A stretch of DNA of 16,703 nt from Thermoproteota archaeon (lineage in GTDB: Archaea; Thermoproteota; EX4484-205; JAAOZP01), in assembly GCA_049700215.1 (NCBI GenBank), contig JBNAVT010000029.1:1-16703 (forward strand). The letters run 5' to 3'. Shown here one piece after another: positions 1 to 16,703 of the stretch. The notes under the pieces were generated by a model that saw only the letters and a program-made list of their open reading frames with translations, searched no databases and was not told the DNA's origin. Made by a program: the position numbers and the translations under genes. Within the stretch, counting starts at the first letter, position 1. Every line of letters starts with the position of its first letter.

Positions 1-54
1 GTGACAAGCAACATAGTGGCCAAGCTCTATTTCGATTAACTCCGGCTTCTCGTA
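1..54 (-). pseudogene. C-terminal remnant of an oligopeptide/oligosaccharide ABC ATPase (OppD/OppF C-terminal domain); runs off the window start
   Basis: Manual translation of 54->1 gives YEKPELIEIELGHYVACH, matching the P-x-L-x-E-x(3)-GH-x-VACH tail of OppD/OppF. The rest of the gene is absent; the remnant starts at the (GC)7 motif. Not in the ORF track. Confidence 0.8.
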
Positions 55-251
55 GCGCGCGCGCGCGCTGCAAGTAATGCTACCGTTGTGAATGAAATAA
101 GTATAATGAGCCCGATTATGGCCTTTCTATCGTGCAGAACAACCCTCCATATTTCGAGCCAACCGCTTCTTTGATCACTCCATGTCCATGTGTTTCTTGA
201 ACCTGATTTACGAATGCTCTCAGGTTGATTACTAGTTAAACACGTCTTCAT
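36..251 (-). pseudogene. oppC: Truncated ABC permease OppC/DppC (N-terminus and first TM helix only)
   Basis: ATG abuts the oppB stop. 'WRVVLHDRKAIIGLIILISFTTVALLA' is a typical OppC N-terminal domain, normally followed by P..APYDP. Here it becomes ARARATRSRS* at the (GC)7 tract. Confidence 0.8.
53..69. repeat. TA(GC)nT palindromic motif, (GC)7 copy
   Basis: TAGCGCGCGCGCGCGCT read directly; lies at the oppC/oppD-F junction. Confidence 0.9.
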
Positions 252-1253
252 TTAATACCGGACCCTCGGATCTATAATTACGTACAGTATGTCCGTTATG
301 TAGTTTGCAATAATGACCGCCACAGTTATTATGTAAAAGAATCCTTGGATCAAAGGGTAGTCTTGATTAAGAATTGCGTTAAAAAGCAGTAGCCCTACAC
401 CGGGATAAGAGAAGACGGATTCGGTTACGATCGCGCCACCTACCATTGTCCCAAGGTGTAGCGTGAACAATGTTAAGACCGGTAGTAATGCATTCCTTGC
501 AGCATGCTTAATAATTATTGTCCTTGGCTTCACACCCTTTGCTTCAGCCAAAGTTATGTAGTCCTCACCCATTGTTGAAACCATGTTATCACGCATAATG
601 ATCGTGTAGGAAGCGAAATTGCCTGCAACCAGCGAAAGCGTTGGAAGGACGGCGTGTCTTAGAACGTCTACGATGAATTCTAGGCTGAAGAACGGTTTTG
701 AAGCAACATGGCTCGAATATGCTCCTGCAACAGGAAAGATGGGTATGTAAACCCCGAAGATCATTATCAGAATCATGGCGATCCAAAAATACGGAGTTGA
801 GAGAAGGAATATTGAGATTGTTGAGATTACGGCTTCAAGTTTGGTTCCTCGCTTCCAAGCCGATAGCATTCCTAAAAAAATTCCCAGAGTAGCTGTCAAT
901 ACTGTTGACAGAGTTAGAAGGAAAAGTGTCCAAGGAAGATAGAGCATAACCACATTCCAGACGGGAGCAGGATAATAAGAGTATGAAATCCCGAAGTACG
1001 GTGGAAACGTGAAAACTACGTTCTTCATATATAACGCGAATTGTTCGAGAAGCGGTTTGTCTAAGCCGAACCTGGTGCGGAGAGCTGCCGCCACCTCACC
1101 TGGAAGCCTGTATGAAGAAGCCATCAACTCCTCAGGGCTTCCTGGAATCAATCGAGGAATAACGAATACAAAAATTAGTGCAATTACATAGGTCAACAAT
1201 GCGTTCATACCACGTTGAAGAAGGTACTGCCAAGACAACAAGAGATTTTTCAC
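252..1253 (-). CDS. oppB: ABC transporter permease, OppB/DppB family
   Basis: 333 aa, multiple TM helices, 'FVIPRLIPGSP', 'FGLDKPLLEQF', EAA loop 'EDYITLAEAKGV..HAARNALLP', C-terminal 'DYPLIQG..DILYVIIDPRVR'. Confidence 0.93.
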   Translation of the reverse strand: MKNLLLSWQYLLQRGMNALLTYVIALIFVFVIPRLIPGSPEELMASSYRLPGEVAAALRTRFGLDKPLLEQFALYMKNVVFTFPPYFGISYSYYPAPVWNVVMLYLPWTLFLLTLSTVLTATLGIFLGMLSAWKRGTKLEAVISTISIFLLSTPYFWIAMILIMIFGVYIPIFPVAGAYSSHVASKPFFSLEFIVDVLRHAVLPTLSLVAGNFASYTIIMRDNMVSTMGEDYITLAEAKGVKPRTIIIKHAARNALLPVLTLFTLHLGTMVGGAIVTESVFSYPGVGLLLFNAILNQDYPLIQGFFYIITVAVIIANYITDILYVIIDPRVRY

Positions 1254-1331: not shown

Positions 1332-3149
1332 TTAGCGTTTACGAAGAACATAGTACAGAACCACTATCAAGACCACTAGCAGGGTAATTCCTACGGCATA
1401 CAGCTCTATAGGTGGCCCGGGTGGAGGAGTTACTTTTTCTTCAGGAGCTACTTTAACCGCGGGAAGATGAAGATTACAAACTAGGTTGCTCATCGGCCAG
1501 TTAAAACCTTCTTTCATAGGCTCCCACCCCTCAAAGGTGTCAGTCCTATGAGCCCATATATGTTTCGCATAGTATAAGGATAGGAAGGGTAGTTCCTCCG
1601 CTATGATTCGTTGAGCCTCATTGTATATCTCGTGAAGCCTCGCTGGGTCAGATTCCTGACGACTTATTTCCATCAATTCCTTGTAACGATCGTTAGCCCA
1701 CCGGGTCCATCCTCTATAGTAAACACTTTGTCCTATTGGAGTTACCCGAGGATAGAAGAACTTGTTCAACACGAAATCCATTGAAAGCGGATGGTTAGTT
1801 AGTATAACTCCCATGTCATAGTAGCCGTATCCGTAATTATTAACGTAGACTGAACTTGAAAAAGTTCTAACAGAGACGTCAAGCCCTATGTCCTTCCATT
1901 GCTGAGCCACTACTGCGGCAATAAGTGTTTCTCCACCTGCTCTCGCCATGAGCTCTAGCGTCAGTTTTGTTCCGTTGGGATAATACCAGAAACCGTCGGT
2001 TCCAAGTACGAAACCCAGGCTCTCAATAAGTGCCTTAGCTTTAGTAATGTTGCGCGGGTATGTTGGAAGCCCGGGAGCGAGCCACTCCGTGAAGTCGGAT
2101 GGAAGGAACCCATAGCTTGCTACCTTGCCATAACCTCCTGCAGCTAAATCAACTATTTGCTGTCTATCTAAGCCATAGGCCAAAGCCTGTCTAAACTCTT
2201 TTTGTGAGAGAGGATATCTAAGGTTGTTAATAAGTATTCCAGCCCATCTGGCCATCTGCCAAGCACCGTAGGGGTGGGTCGAGAAGGTTTCGACAGTAAC
2301 GTTCGGAAGACCGACTAGCCCAGCCACTTGAGCCGTGGATGGAACCTCTATTATGTCAAACTCTTTACTGGCCATTAAGGCAGGAATATTCGCGTCTGGC
2401 GACAGAAGGGTGACAGTTATGTTCGTTACATATGGCTTTGGTCCCCAGTAATATGGGTTCTGCACCATCTTGATAACAGTCGCTCCTGGAGAGAAGTCAA
2501 TTATCTTAAATGGTCCTGTACCTATTGTTTCAGTGAACCTCGTGGAGTTTGGAGAGAGGAACTCGTCAACGCTCTTCCAAAAATGTTTCGGCATGGGTGT
2601 TAACGCTAACCAGTAATAGAGAAACGGAGAAAACACTTGCTTAAGATGAACTTTAAAGTTTTTACTATCAACAACCTCTATATGGTCAATATAGGGGCTA
2701 ATTCCCCACTCGTCGATTTCTGGAAGAGCTTTAATAACGTCGTAAGTAAAGAGTATGTCTTCTGTTGTAACATCAGTCCCATCCGACCACTTTGCGTTTT
2801 CACGAATTGTGAAAGAATATGTGAGACCGTCTGCCGAGGACGACCATGAAGCGAATATTAGGGGGATTAAGGAGCCGTTTGGGGCTTGACGTGCACCTGT
2901 CTCATGAGCCAGACGAAGTAAGTTCTCTAGAAGTATAATGGGGCCAGCCGAAGTAGCTCCATGCCCCTCTATATACATTACTGGTCCTGTCGTGATCAAC
3001 CCGACTCTCAGGTTGCCACCTGACGGGATAACAACTTCTTCTTGCGCATTCCCCATCCTTAACAGTGTTGGAGTAAACAGGCCAAGGATTATCAACAGGA
3101 GAAGTAATAGCATGCGACAGCGGCATGCATTCATATGCATATTATTCAT
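1332..3149 (-). CDS. oppA: ABC substrate-binding protein, family 5 (OppA/DppA-like, probably oligosaccharide-binding), with C-terminal membrane anchor
   Basis: Hydrophobic N-terminal signal; 'SADGLTYSFTIRENAKWSDG..VTTEDILFT', 'IGTGPF', 'NPYYWG', 'FRQALAYGLDR'; Pro-rich linker, TM helix and RKR tail typical of archaeal SBPs. The true start may be a downstream Met. Confidence 0.92.
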   Translation of the reverse strand: MNNMHMNACRCRMLLLLLLIILGLFTPTLLRMGNAQEEVVIPSGGNLRVGLITTGPVMYIEGHGATSAGPIILLENLLRLAHETGARQAPNGSLIPLIFASWSSSADGLTYSFTIRENAKWSDGTDVTTEDILFTYDVIKALPEIDEWGISPYIDHIEVVDSKNFKVHLKQVFSPFLYYWLALTPMPKHFWKSVDEFLSPNSTRFTETIGTGPFKIIDFSPGATVIKMVQNPYYWGPKPYVTNITVTLLSPDANIPALMASKEFDIIEVPSTAQVAGLVGLPNVTVETFSTHPYGAWQMARWAGILINNLRYPLSQKEFRQALAYGLDRQQIVDLAAGGYGKVASYGFLPSDFTEWLAPGLPTYPRNITKAKALIESLGFVLGTDGFWYYPNGTKLTLELMARAGGETLIAAVVAQQWKDIGLDVSVRTFSSSVYVNNYGYGYYDMGVILTNHPLSMDFVLNKFFYPRVTPIGQSVYYRGWTRWANDRYKELMEISRQESDPARLHEIYNEAQRIIAEELPFLSLYYAKHIWAHRTDTFEGWEPMKEGFNWPMSNLVCNLHLPAVKVAPEEKVTPPPGPPIELYAVGITLLVVLIVVLYYVLRKR

Positions 3150-7119: not shown

Positions 7120-7203
7120 ATGCAGGTCAAGATCCGCCCAGCGGAGGAAGAGGATTCGGAGCCGGTTGAAAACATTGTGGGAGACTGGCTTAGCGCGCGC
7201 TAA
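7120..7203 (+). pseudogene. N-terminal remnant of a probable GNAT-family acetyltransferase
   Basis: Manual translation MQVKIRPAEEEDSEPVENIVGDWLSAR*; 'IRPA-xx-ED' is the typical GNAT start. TATA-like CTATAAAT at 7091-7098. The stop comes from the palindrome at 7190-7203. Confidence 0.6.
7190..7203. repeat. TA(GC)nT motif, perfect 14-bp palindrome TTAGCGCGCGCTAA
   Basis: Read directly. Confidence 0.9.
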
Positions 7204-7572: not shown

Positions 7573-7720
7573 ACACTCTCCACCTCACTATATGTCTGGC
7601 AGCAAGTTTTTAAACGTTTTAATGCTGAACCCCGATTTCTGGAAGCAGGCTTTGAAAAACGAGGATCCGGCTGGTTTCAACCCTCATAGTCGGCGTAGAC
7701 GCCTGGGAAACTTCATAAAA

Positions 7721-8149
7721 CTACGTTATTAGAGTCCCGTTCTTTTTATCAAAGAGATGAAGCTTCCTTTTGTTTATCGACACCCAAACGGTGGCTTCAG
7801 GCTTCCATTCCTCAGCCGTCTCCACCTTAAACAGTATGTCTCCTATGTGGAGGCTGACTATAGCTTTACCCCCCAGCGGCTCCGCCACATAGACCCTGGC
7901 CTTAATACGTTCCCCACCGGGTGTTTCATGCAAGGATATGTCTTCAGGTCTAATCCCCAGTATGACTTCACTCCCCACGTGAGGCGCTAGAAGACCCTTA
8001 AACTCAGTCAGGTCAAGGCTAAAGTGTACCGCATCCACGTACAGCTTATCGTCTTTCTCAATCAGCCTACCTTCCGTCATGTTCATCGGCGGGCTTCCTA
8101 TAAAGCTCGCTGTGAACACGTTAGCCGGACGATAGTATAGTTCATCGGG
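7721..8149 (-). pseudogene. 3' remnant of a MalK/MsmX-type sugar ABC ATPase (regulatory/TOBE domains)
   Basis: Extending the frame to 8149 gives PDELYYRPANVFTASFIGSPPMN..LGIRPEDI..AEPLGG..LHLFD. The whole nucleotide-binding domain is missing. Confidence 0.85.
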
Positions 8150-8724
8150 GAGTAGCCTTCTTCCTGACGCTGATCTCCCTCGTCGTGATCCTTTGCCATT
8201 TCTACCTTAACCCTTACCCCGTGACCCCGTGGCAAACGCTCGGCTGCTTCCTAGCCATGACTGTTCTCACGTTTTGCGCTAAGAGGCTTAGAGGCTTGAA
8301 GCTAGGCTGCGCCGAGAGCCGTGTGAGGAACAGGTGGCTTTGGCTGCTCGGAGCATCAGGCGGGTTCATGTATTTCTTCATCGTGTTTGGGCTTCTGCCC
8401 TTGGTTGGCATCCCAGTTTTGCTCACGATCTCTATCGGCATCGCATTAACCATCCTTATTACAGTAATCGTCCTCAGGCTCTCTAAGAAAGGCATGGGCG
8501 AGCTAAACGCACTTGGGCTTGCATCCGGCTTCCTGACTCCCCTGATATTCCTCGACCCCATTTTAGAGGCTTCCAGCCCAACCCCCGAGGATTTCAGAGG
8601 GCAGACGGCGGTCGGAGTAATCTTCACTCTGTTTTTAATACTGCTCGGCCGCAAGACCAGCCGCAGGGAGGCGGTGACGCGGCAGGACAAGCAGACTGGG
8701 CAGTCTCTCATGCTCAGCCCCTAA
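8149..8724 (+). pseudogene. 5'-truncated multi-pass membrane protein
   Basis: About 6 hydrophobic segments. The hydrophobic frame continues upstream of the GTG at 8185 (GVAFFLTLISLVVILC) to the junction with the MalK remnant. No promoter or RBS seen. Confidence 0.55.
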
Positions 8725-8829
8725 GTGTCGCGCTCTGCAGACGAGGATTTTAAAAGTTTAGCATGCGCCCTCCTCATTCGAGCGTTTCGCTACCGAGAAA
8801 GACTGCGGCTTCAAACATAGTCTAATCAG

Positions 8830-8838
8830 TAGCGCGCT
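8830..8838. repeat. TA(GC)nT motif, (GC)3 copy
   Basis: TAGCGCGCT read directly. Confidence 0.75.
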
Positions 8839-8911
8839 GAGATTTTCCAACTGCCCAGCTTTCTATCTATCGTCAGCCGCTGCATGAACAGCCGCCTGAA
8901 GAACTGCCGGA

Positions 8912-8923
8912 AGCACGCGCGCT
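8912..8923. repeat. A(GC)5T motif copy with one G>A change
   Basis: AGCACGCGCGCT, at the apparent truncation point of the sialidase-like pseudogene. Confidence 0.7.
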
Positions 8924-9604
8924 CCATCTTACTCCAACTACCTCTGAAAACTATGAGCCCATGCATTATCCGCGGACAGGATGGGAAAACATCGTTAACG
9001 TCTATGCCCAATATCCCGCAGCACTTGGCAACGTTTGCCGCGACTGGAAACATTATGTCCCCGTTATCCAGTACTTCAATATTGCATCCCGCATAGGCTT
9101 CGTTAAAATTAACATAGTCTTCACGCGCCCAATCGTCTTCGCTGAAATCCTCTCCCTCCTCGTATTTCACCTGCTGCCATTTCCAATCCCTCAGATCCTT
9201 CGAAACCCAGATGAAAGAGTGGTCGGTGAAAGTCTTCTCACCCTTCCCCCAAAACCTCCTGTAGCTTTCACGATGATCCTCCAGGACAGCCTCTGCATAT
9301 TCAGGGCAACATAGTGGTCGTGAACAGGATTATAGACTCCTGTTTCAGGCCTCGACCAGAGCAGCTCCATGCCGCCGCGAACCCTGTAGGCATCACGGTA
9401 TATGTCCACCCAACCAGTCCAGGTTCCACCATTATCCTCCGAATAGCGAACATACATCTCGTTTTCATAATCCGATTCGCTTGTAACGCTTCGGATCTCC
9501 ATCCTCTTCAGACCCTTGCCGACGTAGCTCTGCGTCCGGCTTACGCATTTTGAGGGGCCGGGTGACTTTTCAACGATCTCTCTGGTAATTTTGACTCGCG
9601 CCAT
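8924..9604 (-). pseudogene. Frameshifted, 3'-truncated sialidase-like/BNR-repeat (Asp-box) protein
   Basis: ATG at 9604; Asp-box 'RYSEDNGGTW'. Adding one base near 9286 joins ORFs 9191..9625 and 8826..9170 (MQRL-x-LEDHRESYRRFWGKGEKTFTDHSFIWVSKDLRDWKWQQVKYEEG). About 227 codons, too short for a beta-propeller; ends at the motif. Confidence 0.65.
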
Positions 9605-9618
9605 CTTAGCCAGTATGG

Positions 9619-10152
9619 TTAACACCCGGTTCGAGTTAAACGTAGCGCGCGCTTTTCGAATGGTTTAATCACTGTTTCCCTTCCCGGGTTTTCCTCAGCT
9701 TTAACCGCTTCTCCCTGCGGAATGGGAATTGCCTCCGTGCCCAGGTAGGAGTTCAAATCCTCGGATGTCAGCAGGAGGAACAATATGCCCGTGCTCAGTA
9801 TCCCTGTGAGCAACCCCATTAAATGGGGTGCTGCCCCAATAGCAGCGGTTTCAGTATCGATCTTTTCAGACAAGACGTCTGTAAGAAGCGGGATAAAACC
9901 GTAGAGAGAGAAGAATATCCCTAGGACGGCGAAAACGGTGAAAACCAGCAGGGAAACCATGAACGTGACCACTCCCCGTAGCTTGTAAAACATTATTATA
10001 AGCGTAATGAAGAGGGGAAGGAACAGCAGGTCCCACACTATCCACTGTTTCAAGAAAAACCATTTTAGAAGCCAGTAGACAAGCCAGGAAACCATTATCA
10101 TCAAAACGAGTATGACTACCCGCCGGAGTTCCTTGGGTTTCTGCTGGGACAA
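9619..10152 (-). CDS. Hypothetical membrane protein (about 4 TM), C-terminus probably truncated at the motif
   Basis: Four hydrophobic segments and a charged tail; the frame crosses the motif at 9643-9653 and stops shortly after. TATA-like TTTTAAA near 10174-10180. Confidence 0.65.
   Translation of the reverse strand: MSQQKPKELRRVVILVLMIMVSWLVYWLLKWFFLKQWIVWDLLFLPLFITLIIMFYKLRGVVTFMVSLLVFTVFAVLGIFFSLYGFIPLLTDVLSEKIDTETAAIGAAPHLMGLLTGILSTGILFLLLTSEDLNSYLGTEAIPIPQGEAVKAEENPGRETVIKPFEKRALRLTRTGC
9643..9653. repeat. TA(GC)nT motif, (GC)4 copy
   Basis: (ACG)TAGCGCGCGCT read directly. Confidence 0.9.
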
Positions 10153-11850: not shown

Positions 11851-12192
11851 ATGTGGAAGATTATAGATTCTGAAACGATCCCTTTCACGCCTTATCCCAA
11901 GGGGGTTTCAAGCATAAAGAGGATTGTCGAGAAGGAGAAGATTGGAGCCGAGCGTATAAGCGGGTTCGGCCTAATCCAAGTTCCCCCGGGGGGAGTCTTC
12001 GGCCCCCACGAGCACCCTGAAAGAGAAGAGATATACTATGTTCTCTCCAACACCGGGACACTCATAGTTGGGAGCGAGGAGATCCCTGCCAGGGAAGGTT
12101 TAACCCTCTATGTTTCAGGTGAGGAGCCTCATGGAATTAGGAACCAGGGTGACAAACCGCTCCTCGTAGTCTTCGTAACCGTCTACAAGTAG
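11851..12192 (+). CDS. Cupin domain protein (cupin_2)
   Basis: Motif 1 'PPGGVFGPHEHPEREEIYYVLSNTG' and motif 2 'GLTLYVSGEEPHGIRNQG' retain the His/His/Glu/His metal ligands. Confidence 0.9.
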   Translation: MWKIIDSETIPFTPYPKGVSSIKRIVEKEKIGAERISGFGLIQVPPGGVFGPHEHPEREEIYYVLSNTGTLIVGSEEIPAREGLTLYVSGEEPHGIRNQGDKPLLVVFVTVYK

Positions 12193-12220
12193 TTGGGCCT
12201 CGGGGTGAAGGTGTAGCAGG

Positions 12221-13246
12221 ATGAAGGCAGTGGTATACCATGATTTCAACGATTTCCGGTGGGAGGAGGTGGAAACCCCTAGCATCGGCCCCGATGAGAT
12301 TCTAGTTAGGGTAAGGGCATGCGGCCTCTGTTCAACCGACGTGTGGAAAGCAATGTATCACGAGGCTAAGCCCGGCACGGTGCTGGGCCACGAGGTCTCT
12401 GGAGAGGTGGCGGAAACCGGTTCAAACGTTTCAGCAGTAAAGGTTGGCGACAGGGTGGCGGTGTACCACCGTGCTGAATGCGGAGCATGCTACTACTGTA
12501 GGCGTGGCGATGAAACACTCTGCAGCGAGTACCGTCAGCAATCGATTTTCCCAGGCGCGTTCGCAGAGTATATTCGCGTCACATCGAGGCTTGTCCGAAA
12601 ATCCGTTTTCAGAATCCCTGACGAGATGACGCATGAAGAGGCAGCGATGATAGAGCCGACAGCCTGCTGCGTAAGGGCGGTTTCAAAGTGTGGAATATCT
12701 CCGGGAGACAGTGTTCTGGTAATCGGCGACGGCCCCATGGGGCTGCTGAACGCTCAAGTCTCAAAGTCAGCCGGGGCCCTCGTGATGCTCAGCGGCCACC
12801 ATGACAGCCGCGTCGAAGCATCTTTAAGACTCGGAGCAGACTACGCGTTCAACTCGAACAAGACTAGCATTAGGGAGAAGGTTTTGGAGTTGACAGGGGG
12901 GCGTGGAGCCGATTTCATCATAGTGGCAGTCTCTTCCACGGATGCTGTTCAGCAATCCGTGAAGCTTGTTCGAGAAGGCGGCAAGATATGCGTCTTCGGC
13001 GACTTTAGAGACGTTCCCCAGCCTAGTCTCAGCCTAGACCTTAAGCCAGTGGTCCACGGCAGCATCAGCCTTTTAGGCAGCTGGGGCTGCTCAACAAAAG
13101 ACTATCATGCTGCCCTCAACCTGGTGAAAACCGGGAGGGTGAGGGTTAGGGAGATAATAACCCACAGGTTTCCGCTGGAAAGATTCCCAGAGGCCCTCAA
13201 CGTGTTCCTAGGCAAGAACTGTTTAAAGATCATTCTCCACCCTTAA
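12221..13246 (+). CDS. Zn-dependent medium-chain dehydrogenase (sorbitol/L-iditol 2-dehydrogenase-like)
   Basis: 'CGLCSTD', 'LGHEVSG', structural Zn 'CGACYYCRRGDETLC', Rossmann 'VLVIGDGPMG'. GGTG-type RBS. Confidence 0.92.
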   Translation: MKAVVYHDFNDFRWEEVETPSIGPDEILVRVRACGLCSTDVWKAMYHEAKPGTVLGHEVSGEVAETGSNVSAVKVGDRVAVYHRAECGACYYCRRGDETLCSEYRQQSIFPGAFAEYIRVTSRLVRKSVFRIPDEMTHEEAAMIEPTACCVRAVSKCGISPGDSVLVIGDGPMGLLNAQVSKSAGALVMLSGHHDSRVEASLRLGADYAFNSNKTSIREKVLELTGGRGADFIIVAVSSTDAVQQSVKLVREGGKICVFGDFRDVPQPSLSLDLKPVVHGSISLLGSWGCSTKDYHAALNLVKTGRVRVREIITHRFPLERFPEALNVFLGKNCLKIILHP

Positions 13247-13328
13247 CCAGTGTTAACCGCATGTGAGGAGGGTTTCTAGAGGAACCGCAGTATTTAACGC
13301 AAGATGTGAAACGTTTAAGAGGAGGTAA

Positions 13329-13400
13329 ATGGAGACACGTATTTTCCCCATAGAGAGCTCTATGCTCCCGGGCACTTCGGAAACTGGTAGCGCGCGCTAA
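13329..13400 (+). pseudogene. Gene start remnant (23 codons) with intact expression signals, ended by the motif
   Basis: TATTTAA at 13291-13297, GAGGAGGT at 13319-13326, ATG at 13329; METRIFPIESSMLPGTSETGSAR*. Family not recognised. Confidence 0.4.
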
Positions 13401-13625
13401 CATGCTTGCCGACGAAAGGACCAGGCTGCTGAGTTTAAGCTTGACCTGCTAGCCACTCCGAACCATATTTACGTAGCGCGCGCTCAGGTTCCTAGGGAGA
13501 TTATGGCTAGGGATCTCTCGGACAAACAGGCTGAGCGCCGCAAGATGCGTGCGCTAGTGTTAATAAATACTGGGCGTGAACTATGCGAGACACGGGTTGC
13601 ATCGAGCCACGTTAGCGTGCGCTAA
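13388..13625. repeat. Cluster of four TA(GC)nT motif copies separated by unique sequence
   Basis: TAGCGCGCGCTAA 13388-13400; TAGCGCGCGCT 13474-13484; TGCGTGCGCTA 13546-13556; TTAGCGTGCGCTAA 13612-13625. Confidence 0.8.
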
Positions 13626-13643
13626 AAAATGCGGGAGCCAGAT

Positions 13644-13654
13644 AGTTTTAAAAA
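13644..13654 (+). promoter_or_regulatory. Putative TATA box of the beta-helix gene
   Basis: TTTTAAAA at 13646-13653, about 28-35 nt upstream of the ATG at 13681. Confidence 0.45.
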
Positions 13655-13680
13655 CGGCTTAACACTTCTCAGCTTAAAAA

Positions 13681-15681
13681 ATGGAGAGTAGTGTAGATAC
13701 CGTGCTTCTCTATGTTGCGCCTAACGGTAGTGATTCTTGGTCGGGAAGAATGCCTGCGCCAAACCAGTTTAAGACGGATGGACCCTTCGCCACGCTTCAT
13801 CGTGCTGTTGAATCCATCCGTGAGTTGAAGCATCAGCAGGGTGGAACCCTTAGGCAGCCCGTTACAATTCTAATCCGCGGCGGCACATACTTCTTAACCA
13901 AGCCGCTGGTCCTCACCCCTGAAGACTCTGGAACATTCAGCTACCCAGTCTCCCTAGCGGCATACCCGGGTGAGAAGACGGTTGTAAGCGGTGGAAGAAG
14001 GGTGACTGGCTGGGAGGAGAAAATCGTAGACGGAAGGAAACTGTGGGTGGCGGAGGTACCGGAGACAGCTGAAGGCAAATGGTTCTTCCGACACCTCTGG
14101 GTAAACGGGCATGATTGCATACGTGCCCGCAGCCCTAACAAAGGCTACTTTAGGGTTGCAGGCGTTCCGGATGCAGCTTCAGGAGCCAAATGGGATGAAG
14201 GACAGTCTTGCTTCCGGTTCCACGAAGGGGATTTGAAGGCTTGGAATACTGTCAGAGACGGGGAGATCGTGGTTATGAACCGCTGGGTTGAATCACGCCT
14301 GCCCATAGCTAGTGTAGACGAGAAGGAACGCGTCTTGTACTCAACCAGGAGAAGCGTCTTCCGCCTTGACCCGGGTGATCCCTACTACGTGGAGCACGTT
14401 TATGAGCTTCTGGATTCTCCGGGAGAATGGTTTCTAGACCGTGGGGCTTCAACGCTCTACTATATGCCGTTGCCCGGTGAGGAGCCTAGTAAGGCTGAGG
14501 CCATAGCACCCGTGCTCAATGAACTCATCCGGCTCGAGGGTGAGCCCGAGTCAGGCAGATTCGTGGAACACCTCTTTATCAATGGCTTAACATTCGCCCA
14601 CACGGAATGGTGTTTCCCAGAGGACTCGGCTTCGCAGTCTAAGCCGGATGCAGGAGGGTTCCCACAGGCTGCGGTAGGCGTGCCAGGCTGTGTGCACGGG
14701 CAGGGTGTCCGAAACTGTCTCTTCGAAGACTGCACCTTTACCCAGATTGGCAACTATGCTTTAGAGCTGGCACGCGGCTGTCAACACAACCGTGTCACGG
14801 GCTGTAGGTTCTTTAACTTGGGCGCTGGCGGTGTTAAAATAGGGGAAACCATGATCCGCGAGTCTGAGAACGAGCAGACCTACGGTAACGAAGTATCTCG
14901 ATGCGATATCTACAGGGGAGGACGCTTCTTCCACAGCGCTGTCGCGATTTACATTGGGCAGAGCTATAACAACCGTGTCGTCAACAACCATATTCACGAT
15001 TTCTACTACACGGGTATTTCAATCGGCTGGACATGGGGCTACGGGAGATCACTGGCAAAGGGAAACATTGTGGAGTCGAACCATATTCACCATATTGGCG
15101 TCCTGTCTGATGGAGAAGGACCCATTTTAAGCGACATGGGTGGGGTCTACACGCTTGGGGTTCAACCTGGGACAGCCATCCGGTTCAACTTGATTCACGA
15201 TGTCGCCGGCCTTCGCTACGGGGGCTGGGGTATTTATTTCGACGAGGGAAGCACGAGCATTACAGCCGAGGGAAACACGGTTTACAGGACTTCTCACGGA
15301 GGCTTCCACCAGCACTATGGAAAGGAAAACATTGTCCGTAACAACATCTTCGCTTTCGGACGGGAAGCACAGATTCAACGCTCACGGCCAGAGCATCATG
15401 TGAGCTTTATCTTTGAGCGTAACATTATTTACTGGCGGGAAGGCGTCTTGCTCACTGGAAGCATAGATGATTTCAACTTTATCTTCAACCACAACCTTTA
15501 CTGGAGAAAAGACGGTGGCGAAATATGTTTCGGAACACTATCATGGGAGGAATGGCGGAGGCACGGGATGGATATAAACTCTTTAATTGCAGACCCGTTG
15601 TTCATCGCGCCCGATAAGGATGATTTCCGCCTGAAGCCGGACTCGCCAGCGTTCAAACTAGGCTTCATCCCACACGTCTAA
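13681..15681 (+). CDS. Right-handed parallel beta-helix protein, GH141-like glycoside hydrolase
   Basis: 'LYVAPNGSDSWSG..DGPFATLHRA', 'IRGGTYFL', 'AAYPGEKTVVSGG', 'LLDSPGEWFLD', 'YTGISIGWTWG', 'LSDMGGVYTLG', 'GWGIYFDEGS', 'ADPLF..DFRLKPDSPA'. No signal peptide. Confidence 0.85.
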   Translation: MESSVDTVLLYVAPNGSDSWSGRMPAPNQFKTDGPFATLHRAVESIRELKHQQGGTLRQPVTILIRGGTYFLTKPLVLTPEDSGTFSYPVSLAAYPGEKTVVSGGRRVTGWEEKIVDGRKLWVAEVPETAEGKWFFRHLWVNGHDCIRARSPNKGYFRVAGVPDAASGAKWDEGQSCFRFHEGDLKAWNTVRDGEIVVMNRWVESRLPIASVDEKERVLYSTRRSVFRLDPGDPYYVEHVYELLDSPGEWFLDRGASTLYYMPLPGEEPSKAEAIAPVLNELIRLEGEPESGRFVEHLFINGLTFAHTEWCFPEDSASQSKPDAGGFPQAAVGVPGCVHGQGVRNCLFEDCTFTQIGNYALELARGCQHNRVTGCRFFNLGAGGVKIGETMIRESENEQTYGNEVSRCDIYRGGRFFHSAVAIYIGQSYNNRVVNNHIHDFYYTGISIGWTWGYGRSLAKGNIVESNHIHHIGVLSDGEGPILSDMGGVYTLGVQPGTAIRFNLIHDVAGLRYGGWGIYFDEGSTSITAEGNTVYRTSHGGFHQHYGKENIVRNNIFAFGREAQIQRSRPEHHVSFIFERNIIYWREGVLLTGSIDDFNFIFNHNLYWRKDGGEICFGTLSWEEWRRHGMDINSLIADPLFIAPDKDDFRLKPDSPAFKLGFIPHV

Positions 15682-15802: not shown

Positions 15803-16703
15803 GTGATAAGAAGGCTGAGGCTGTGGAACTTCAGGGGTGTGAAAAGGGGGGAGGCTAGGCTTGCACCCTTCACGATTATCCTAGGCGGCAACAACTCTGG
15901 CAAGACGACTCTTCTCGAAGCCCTGTTCCTCGCTCCAAACCCTTTCCGTAGAGCCCCTTATTCCGGAGTCGACGTGGCGGTTAAGATACTGCACGAGCTG
16001 CACAAGGTTTTCGAAAGCACAGGCTACTTCTTCCTTTTCCACAACTACACTTCGGGCAAAGCAGGAATCCAGTGCGACAGCCACGTGATACGTTTCATCA
16101 GGGATAATGAAATGATTTACGTCACTACGAATAAGAGCGACACTGGCCAGTGCATAATGCTTAACGGTAAGCCGACTCAGGTTTTAGGAAAACTGTCTTT
16201 CACGCTTACCAACATAGTATTCATGTACGTTAACGATAAGGTGACCAAGGAGGATTCTCTGCTTCTCAGCCCGAGCCTTACAAAGATGAGCTACAATTAC
16301 CTGAGGATAAACTGGCCCCTTCTTGCTCACAGCGATGTTTGCAGCAAGATTGCTGAAGAATTGTCTCAGCTTGTTGGCGAAAAGTGCGTCGACATAACTA
16401 TGGAGCCCTTCTTCAAAGGAGGAATGTCGTTGAACCTTCTTCTCGAAGACGAGAGGAGGATAAGGCTCAGCGACGCTGGAACAGGGGTTCAGAACTATGT
16501 TACGGCGAGAATCCTATATGAGTTGAATAAGCCTGGGATACTGCTCTGGGACGATTTTGAGAACAGCCTTGATTCAGCCACGCTTTCAAGCGTCTCAGGC
16601 TGGCTATCAAGCCTTGTTGAAAAAGGCGTTCAAGTCGTTGTAACCACCCGCAGCCCGGAGGCCGCGGGAAGGATTGCGGCAGCTGCCGGAGGCAAACCGA
16701 TGA
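15803..16703 (+). CDS. AAA_15/AAA_21-type (ABC-superfamily, non-transporter) ATPase, partial at the window end
   Basis: Manual translation from GTG 15803, open for 300 codons: MIRRLRLWNFRGVK..FTIILGGNNSGKTTLLEAL (Walker A), 'RLSDAGTG', 'ILLWDDFENSLD' (Walker B), 'QVVVTTRS'. Absent from the ORF track because no stop is reached. Confidence 0.88.
   Translation, partial: MIRRLRLWNFRGVKRGEARLAPFTIILGGNNSGKTTLLEALFLAPNPFRRAPYSGVDVAVKILHELHKVFESTGYFFLFHNYTSGKAGIQCDSHVIRFIRDNEMIYVTTNKSDTGQCIMLNGKPTQVLGKLSFTLTNIVFMYVNDKVTKEDSLLLSPSLTKMSYNYLRINWPLLAHSDVCSKIAEELSQLVGEKCVDITMEPFFKGGMSLNLLLEDERRIRLSDAGTGVQNYVTARILYELNKPGILLWDDFENSLDSATLSSVSGWLSSLVEKGVQVVVTTRSPEAAGRIAAAAGGKPM

Follow-up and report, generated by a model that had tools for sequence, protein, structure and literature searches.

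The window, by which we mean the whole stretch of 16,703 nucleotides analyzed here, corresponds to C29:1-16703 of an 85-contig genome (G000), and its start is the end of that contig. Genes of an opp operon lie on its minus strand. The gene of a substrate-binding protein, oppA (1332-3149; Pfam SBP_bac_5, 9.2e-66), is followed by an intact permease gene, oppB (252-1253; Pfam BPD_transp_1, 5.8e-46), and then by the start codon and first 61 codons of a second permease gene, oppC (69-251), which breaks off inside the OppC_N domain. Positions 55-68 are a (GC)7 tract, GCGCGCGCGCGCGC, and positions 1-54 hold 18 codons from the last part of oppD, YEKPELIEIELGHYVACH, identified by alignment to the OppD ends of two related operons, L129 and L136. 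A family-5 binding protein and two permeases in the order A-B-C are what an oppABCDF operon has, and two ATPases with ABC_tran and oligo_HPY complete the set: OppF is encoded on another contig of the genome, C36, and the OppD body was reached via a contig that continues beyond window position 55. OppB and three other proteins of the window are identical on a 51,091-nt contig in other assemblies.

Translation of the minus strand of 69-251 gives 61 residues that end in ...TTVALLA. Compared with Pfam OppC_N, this N-terminal piece gives a weak match (E 1.4e-4; 22.1 bits, under the cut-off of 23.9). In a protein search, all 61 of its residues (61/61) are identical to those of P0012, a 116-aa partial OppC from an NCBI assembly, which itself scores above the OppC_N cut-off at 44.6 bits. 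The oppD tail, YEKPELIEIELGHYVACH, is read in a frame other than that of oppC and aligns with the ends ...CFYEKPKLIKIGHDHYIACHKVTS of the L129 OppD and ...CFSKKPEFIEVGQGHYVACHKVVS of the L136 OppD. Translation across the joint yields a chimeric ORF of 71 aa (36-251, minus strand), which consists of the 61 OppC residues, ARARATRSRS and a stop; its exact sequence is absent from the protein collection searched. The reading frame of the chimeric ORF differs from that of the oppD tail, so a fusion protein is not expected.

The original prediction, that the N-terminus of oppC is joined to the tail of oppD or oppF through (GC)7, is borne out in its structure by the minus-strand translation and by the tract at 55-68. 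The tail is that of an ATPase, and the peptide of 1-54, whose failure to align had been named as a reason for rejection, aligns with the OppD end in both related operons; it does not belong to oppF, however, but to oppD, the gene of the first ATPase. The prediction had also held that (GC)7 was added at the junction and had named GC-rich microhomology at both parental breakpoints as the observation that would speak against this. None was found, and the filler model survives: the bases common to both parental breakpoints amount to at most one G, and there is no GC tract at either. The G at 55 can also be assigned to intact oppD, and the extra bases at the joint number 13-14. Microhomology-mediated deletion, in which shared breakpoint bases are kept once at the joint, does not describe this structure. 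With both parental breakpoints free of GC tracts and of GC-rich microhomology, the (GC)7 of the joint is added filler. With up to one mismatch, GCGCGCGCGC has five matches in the window where 0.28 are expected, a number that none of 200 shuffles reached (0/200); the (GC) tract in the window is no chance feature. At this length it is also unusual, since only 3 of 537 tracts with at least three repeats in the genome are as long.

Intact relatives locate both breakpoints. The other 16 genomes of the genus have only distant relatives of this OppB, none more than 39% identical, and the DNA matches are weak, so breakpoints cannot be aligned in those genomes. Closer operons are L129 (93% OppB identity) and L136 (90%), both of which are arranged oppB-oppC-oppD-oppF, followed by the same neighbor gene as on C36. 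The check that had been proposed, a search for the intact operon in a relative, could be carried out on these two, where the breakpoints were placed and the oppC and oppD flanks supported. The break in oppC falls after the residue aligned with the end of ...VLA and before PYIAPYDP, and that in oppD falls 22 codons before the stop. Spacing between the breakpoints in intact operons, as estimated from BLAST coordinates, is ~1.63 kb (1,636 nt in L129 and 1,629 nt in L136). The predicted loss of most of oppC and one or both ATPases, put at 1.5-3 kb, stands insofar as the joint skips ~1.63 kb with the bodies of oppC and oppD. It does not extend to oppF, which is intact on C36, and it is not the main genotype.

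A branching contig end and an intact operon

Window bases 1-55 are identical to C36:14620-14674, the last 55 bases of C36. Contig ends of G000 have 42 terminal 55-mer matches, and N-runs of 10 and 100 are present in the contigs; from these terminal identities and N-runs it follows that each contig is a path through a k=55 graph. In de Bruijn assemblies, overlaps of length k between contig ends occur at branch vertices and at minor-variant or chimeric edges. C36 and C29 meet at a branching vertex of the k=55 graph: the k bases at the end of one recur at the end of the other, and there is an alternative continuation. The joint lies within C29:1-68, of which 1-55 is the k-mer overlap with C36.

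The sequence left of the window, where the original prediction advised looking for the ATPase stop and a possible intact oppF, thus lies on another contig, and both were found there. On its minus strand, C36 has the rest of the oppD tail (NVVS and a stop) and then a complete second ATPase, with Pfam matches to ABC_tran at 5.7e-36 and oligo_HPY at 2.7e-15. This arrangement on C36 assigns the tail in the window to oppD and shows that oppF is intact. Contigs of G000 hold only the last 22 codons of OppD. The situation is like that of other k-overlapping contig ends in de Bruijn assemblies in that an exact 55-base overlap goes with a better-supported alternative path, and in that the missing piece of ~1.7 kb is smaller than the smallest contig in the genome (2,553 nt). 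Unlike ordinary chimeric graph edges, the minor edge here has a structured filler that recurs at fixed genomic sites.

Two public hot-spring runs hold the window (X1 with 0.96 and X2 with 0.31 of the sampled words), and their Logan contigs were compared with window positions 1-600. Record 1 of X1 (5,974 nt, depth 10) matches 1-55 and then diverges, its loose end encoding RCPIAKERCF in frame with the YEKPEL of oppD. Record 2 of X1 (6,968 nt, depth 10.7) and record 3, from X2 (depth 3.4), match the window from 69 on; before 69, both read PYIAPYDPFA in frame after VALLA, as an intact oppC does. The two X1 records reach 1,212 and 435 nt past the breakpoints. The intact flanks show 100% identity with the window across 55 and 532 bases, and their depth (10 and 10.7) equals the full depth of the neighboring contigs. 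P0012 also crosses the oppC breakpoint and continues after the 61 residues with PYIAPYDPFALIG.... Since the X1 and X2 contigs and P0012 run from the flanks into intact oppC and oppD, the operon is intact in the main genotype. Among the Logan contigs of X1 and X2, none runs across window 56-68 or has the joint; 3.4% of all 31-mers overlap the filler, which fits the 4% of words missing from X1. Two further runs, X3 and X4, gave no matching contig, a result that carries no information on the joint. An exact 23-base pattern of the oppD tail had no match in JGI metagenome contigs.

The joint is thus neither the only nor the main path at this locus, and the intact allele is present. The original prediction took the deletion to be the state of the genome and named an intact oppC in the reads as the observation that would overturn it; at contig level, X1, X2 and P0012 provide that observation, and this part of the prediction falls. 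Contigs drop rare variants, so the lack of a contig with the joint neither proves nor disproves a minor allele. Logan contigs are made from the same reads, so they do not speak against a read-level artefact either. In annotation, the opp operon ought to be entered as intact; C29 needs either to lose 68 bases or to be connected with C36 via the missing 1.6 kb.

The start of C29 is not the only contig end close to a tract: with it, 4 of 170 ends have a tract at a distance of 53-54 nt, versus 0.064 expected (p 7e-7). The end of C28 has (GC)5 and then 55 bases identical to the end of C10, and the 64 bases before its tract resemble C10 ~1.13 kb upstream (77% identity). The first 55 bases of C67 lie within C58 (C58:4729-4783) and are followed by (GC)5 and then by unrelated sequence. 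The C28/C10 and C67/C58 ends are alternative joints of the same type as the oppCD joint. The fourth case, the end of C69 and the start of C41, is a different situation, a similar pair that differs by one base in the tract. The C69 and C41 copies read ...TTTA, a GC tract and CCGGAGCGCCC...ATGATGA..., which might be where a small RNA gene begins, preceded by a promoter-like AT box.

GC tracts and deletion joints in part of the genus

In the 2.09 Mb of G000, GCGCGCGC has 339 copies, whereas the other 8-mers counted have 0-58, with the exception of the phase-shifted CGCGCGCG (132). Maximal tracts comprise 273 of (GC)3, 204 of (GC)4, 53 of (GC)5 and 7 longer ones, and those with n of at least 4 total 264. 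Their phase is fixed, with 166 runs of 8 that start with G and end with C versus 10 in the other phase. An A is at -1 in 197 of 263 tracts and a T at +1 in 194 of 263, and TA lies beside the tract on both sides in 46 of 263 and on one side in 132 of 263. An ORF that extends at least 150 nt to each side spans 5.6% of 233 tracts versus 62.8% of 1,000 random sites, and by a crude gene call, 177 of 264 tracts are intergenic versus 428 of 3,000 random positions.

Few genomes of the phylum share this feature. The 12-mer TA(GC)4TA has 35 copies in G000 and 28, 26, 14, 11 and 9 copies in five other species of the genus; in the remaining genus, one species has 4 copies and the rest have 0-1. Among 401 genomes of the phylum, 374 are without any copy, and nine or more copies occur only in the six genomes of the genus and in one outlier. 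The outlier, which is outside the genus, has 12 copies, and the reversed control is raised there too. The tract-rich genomes (G000, G002 and G006-G009) represent six species of one genus; G002 and G000 are 83-95% identical in DNA.

Alignments with relatives associate the tracts with the ends of homology. Three 20-kb stretches of G000, picked as tract-rich and not at random, and parts of the window (12001-15000) were compared with the corresponding loci of five relatives. An alignment of at least 80 nt with a relative ends no more than 3 nt from the tract in 11 of 34 cases, versus 2.3% of 5,000 random positions (Fisher p 2.7e-10). At unspanned sites with homology within 200 nt, 10 of 16 tracts lie at an alignment edge versus 8.8%. 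Conversely, alignments with relatives span 5 of 34 tracts, two of the five ambiguously, versus 81% of random positions. A further 13 of 34 tracts lie in DNA without a homologue in the five relatives.

Six cases are colinear on both sides, and in these the tract replaces 175, 369, 476, 376, ~900 and ~155-199 nt of the relative. At 7193-7200, (GC)4 exactly replaces 320 nt of G002 in the alignment, with the native flanks ...ggctta and taatgc... and the filler GCGCGCGC. The reverse was seen in G008, where GCGCGCGC and a T stand in place of 745 nt that G007 and G009 retain, and among the relatives' own tracts, 7 of 22 have such alignment edges. In five colinear cases, the filler is GCGCGCGC and a non-native T (or an A on the other strand). 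No GC microhomology was found at the fixed colinear joints. In 6 of 7 cases, the genome that has kept the deleted segment carries it within an ORF of 918-1,734 nt, and there is no similarity among the segments; because the segments are unrelated and mostly lie within ORFs, these are gene-internal deletions and not excised elements. A (GC)5 replaces CC in a repeated gene, a small event. The intergenic tract at L032 7195 fits a TA target duplication on a poor alignment, and other small events replace 2-3 nt without duplication. For one tract of G007, the alignment is too poor for classification.

Three lesions lie close together in the window. At 13390-13397, (GC)4 marks a deletion joint in a gene remnant, where five relatives have ~199 nt and the window has 44. 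In the same remnant, at 13476-13483, (GC)4 and a T replace GAC of the relatives in the alignment, the filler being GCGCGCGCT. A degenerate tract, GCGTGCGC, is at 13547-13554, where G002 has ~1.1 kb more. The apparently intergenic stretch 13247-13680, with its three GC-tract lesions, is what remains of a gene that five relatives have intact; a second GCGTGCGC was noticed at 13615-13622. A (GC)4 at 9645-9652, in the 3' end of a 177-aa ORF and 22 nt from the edge of a conserved block, is a putative scar, and the 177-aa protein coded across it is identical in NCBI, Logan and ENA assemblies. The adjacent block of the window, 7621-9674, is poorly conserved or absent in five relatives and bounded near 9645 by this (GC)4. 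ORFs without Pfam matches were noted in and around it at 8185-8724, 8826-9170, 9191-9625 and 9619-10152.

We read the (GC)4-5 tracts as a lineage-specific deletion scar. In the literature searched, with subscription journals outside its scope, no description of such a scar pattern was found. Another observation from the compared stretches concerns L032 18531-18989 (G000 C3:44530-44988), which is ~450 nt long, occurs many times in each of the five relatives and is probably a repeated gene or element; its G000 copy has a (GC)5 insertion and ends at another CGCGCGC.

Origin of the oppCD joint and of its filler

We infer that the joint exists in cells, and we favor, as reasonably probable, the reading that it is a rare, real deletion allele made by the scar-forming process of this clade. 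On the simplest account of the contigs, the assembly graph would have contained the intact path together with a short edge through (GC)7; under the favored reading, window 1-68 would be the minority path, left at the end of C29. The intact piece of ~1.7 kb would have become a separate contig under the size floor of the genome (its smallest contig has 2,553 nt), and the short edge would have stayed on C29. The rare allele would have lost ~1.63 kb, namely OppC from residue 62 on and all of OppD but the last 22 codons, with the ends sealed by 13-14 non-templated bases of alternating GC. It would be a null allele of the transporter and one fresh product of a clade-specific mutational process. Counting against this reading are the unusual length of the (GC)7, the absence of the chimeric ORF from the protein collection and the position of the joint right at a contig end.

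A technical chimera is rather unlikely in our view, but has several points in its favor. In that case, the joint would never have been in a cell; chimeric or erroneous reads, or gap closing by the assembler, would have linked the oppD tail to the oppC start, and this path would have survived only through a local coverage gap in the intact path. Its position in the first 68 bases of a contig, beside a 55-base graph overlap, is where such a product might be expected, as assembly errors concentrate at contig ends, and at a depth of only ~10x, gaps in a k=55 graph are likely. No independent contig crosses the joint, and the intact allele is shown by three lines of evidence. A chimera, however, gives no reason for a filler of 13-14 nt of alternating GC, nor for a link in direct order between two points of the same molecule that are separated by 1.63 kb, with the typical A...T flanks. 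Neither parent has a tract able to mediate template switching, the same structure is fixed within contigs and in other species, and a pattern restricted to one genus among 401 genomes is unlike a library artefact. The opposite possibility, that the organism has lost oppC and oppD for good and the intact copies come from another strain, is very unlikely. The deposited contig does have the joint, and the genome has many fixed scars of the same kind; yet the intact flanks are identical over 55 and 532 bases at full depth, Logan contigs cross both breakpoints unbroken, and had the joint been the sole or principal path, a merger of C36 and C29 would be expected and not an overlap by k.

Across cases, the filler is nearly constant, self-complementary and not templated by the flanks, and it accompanies losses of 2 nt to ~1.7 kb. 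We tentatively suggest, at somewhat less than even confidence, that a small hot-spring archaeal clade has an active break-and-seal pathway that writes a near-constant (GC)4-5 filler, and that the oppCD joint was caught while polymorphic. As part of the same tentative reading, the pathway would yield gene-internal deletions of 0.15 to ~1.7 kb. DNA ends, often with A on one side and T on the other, or TA, would be joined with a short self-complementary filler, usually GCGCGCGC, to which a single T (an A on the opposite strand) is often added. For the mode of filler synthesis, which we infer, our guess is Ku-independent end joining at high temperature, in which GC tails on both 3' ends would anneal mutually. 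Full overlap of the tails would give the modal 8 bp, and partial overlap would give longer tracts such as (GC)7. A candidate for the enzyme involved is the replicative primase.

To our knowledge, little has been established about how Ku-less archaea reseal DNA breaks at high temperature. At the junctions of end-joining deletions, filler DNA is familiar from classical and alternative end joining in eukaryotes and from Ku/LigD in bacteria. There, as here, a deletion without microhomology is sealed by a short insert, but the filler described here is nearly constant alternating GC, mostly 8-10 nt and often with one T or A, and is lineage-specific in archaea with Ku in 0 of 17 genomes. That count comes from a search of 17 genomes of the genus (70-95% complete), in which Ku (PF02735) was found in none (0/17) and a B. 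subtilis control was positive. The RVT_1 reverse transcriptase was likewise found in 0 of 17, and so was the IS630-type DDE_3 (PF13358), although multi-copy elements may be missing from such assemblies. The presence or absence of DDE_3, Ku or RVT_1 does not explain why only part of the genus has tracts. Neither Ku-dependent end joining nor an IS630/Tc1-mariner footprint, that is, DDE_3 together with element ends abutting TA, is recognizable in these genomes. A restriction-type cut at AGCGCT followed by fill-in, which would give A(GC)4T, was also considered and was dropped because the parental breakpoints are without GCGC.

Primase-mediated repair in Saccharolobus islandicus is a closer parallel. 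According to the part of that study used here, its PriSL primase combines terminal transfer with end annealing on 2-4 GC pairs in break repair, and repaired breaks have indels that are biased to C/G and mostly of 1-2 bp (PMC12019639). Both systems involve a hyperthermophilic archaeon and annealing on GC pairs; unlike the present case, the same part of the study mentions no alternating (GC)4 filler and no kilobase deletions (PMC12019639). Such annealing could also serve an origin in two steps, which we consider improbable. In this alternative, (GC)4-5 would be inserted first, the deletion would follow by recombination between nearby tracts acting as GC-rich microhomology, and out-of-register pairing would give longer tracts such as (GC)7. 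It draws on the small events in which 2-3 nt are replaced by 9-10 nt, on the clustering of tracts (those at 13390 and 13476 are 86 nt apart, and seven lie within 2 kb on C19) and on the annealing of ends by the archaeal primase on 2-4 GC pairs (PMC12019639). The main allele, however, is without a tract at either breakpoint, which would require two insertions and a deletion to have taken place within a single rare lineage, and relatives are without tracts at both ends of every deleted segment examined.

Most improbable of all, in our estimate, is a TA-duplicating cut-and-paste transposon of the IS630/Tc1-mariner type with GCGC ends, the imprecise excision of which would remove flanking DNA. Excision footprints of Tc1/mariner and IS630 elements consist of TA flanks and a short palindromic insert, and the tracts are like them in both respects: TA is frequent beside them (on both sides in 46/263, on one side in 132/263), and the filler is palindromic and of a fixed size, as expected from two inverted ends. 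Yet a DDE_3 transposase was found in 0 of 17 genomes of the genus, and neither repeated sequence nor repeated element ends were found beside 1200 tract flanks or 825 TAGCGC sites. The T or A beside the tract is often non-native in colinear cases, the small events replace 2-3 nt with no TA duplication, and the tracts go with deletions of unrelated gene segments. HIP1, the highly iterated palindrome of cyanobacteria, offers another comparison. It too is a GC-rich palindrome strongly over-represented in one lineage, but the tracts described here avoid reading frames (5.6% vs 62.8%) and coincide with indel joints.

Because a constant GC filler marks the joints, every event is recognizable from sequence alone, and deletion rates, sizes, site preferences and polymorphism could in principle be read directly from metagenomes. 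If the reading as scars is true, the tracts would record, in readable form, how an uncultured hyperthermophile has repaired double-strand breaks and lost genes. For annotation, they are a warning that many stretches of these genomes that appear intergenic are gene remnants. The wider scar pattern matters more than the oppCD locus, where the result is one of caution.

Some further features of the genome were noted. An AAA_21/AAA_15 ATPase gene at window 15803-16702 is cut by an N-run (C29:16704-16713). A partial archaeal 16S rRNA gene lies at a contig end (G000 C49:9255-10029) with a tRNA upstream; it appeared as two pieces 12 nt apart in the genome search and as one match in an Rfam scan. A second OppB-like gene (G000 C12:12768-13763), with orthologues in G002, G009 and G011, has one in-frame TAA in the four genomes, which may reflect only a match that extends beyond the start codon.
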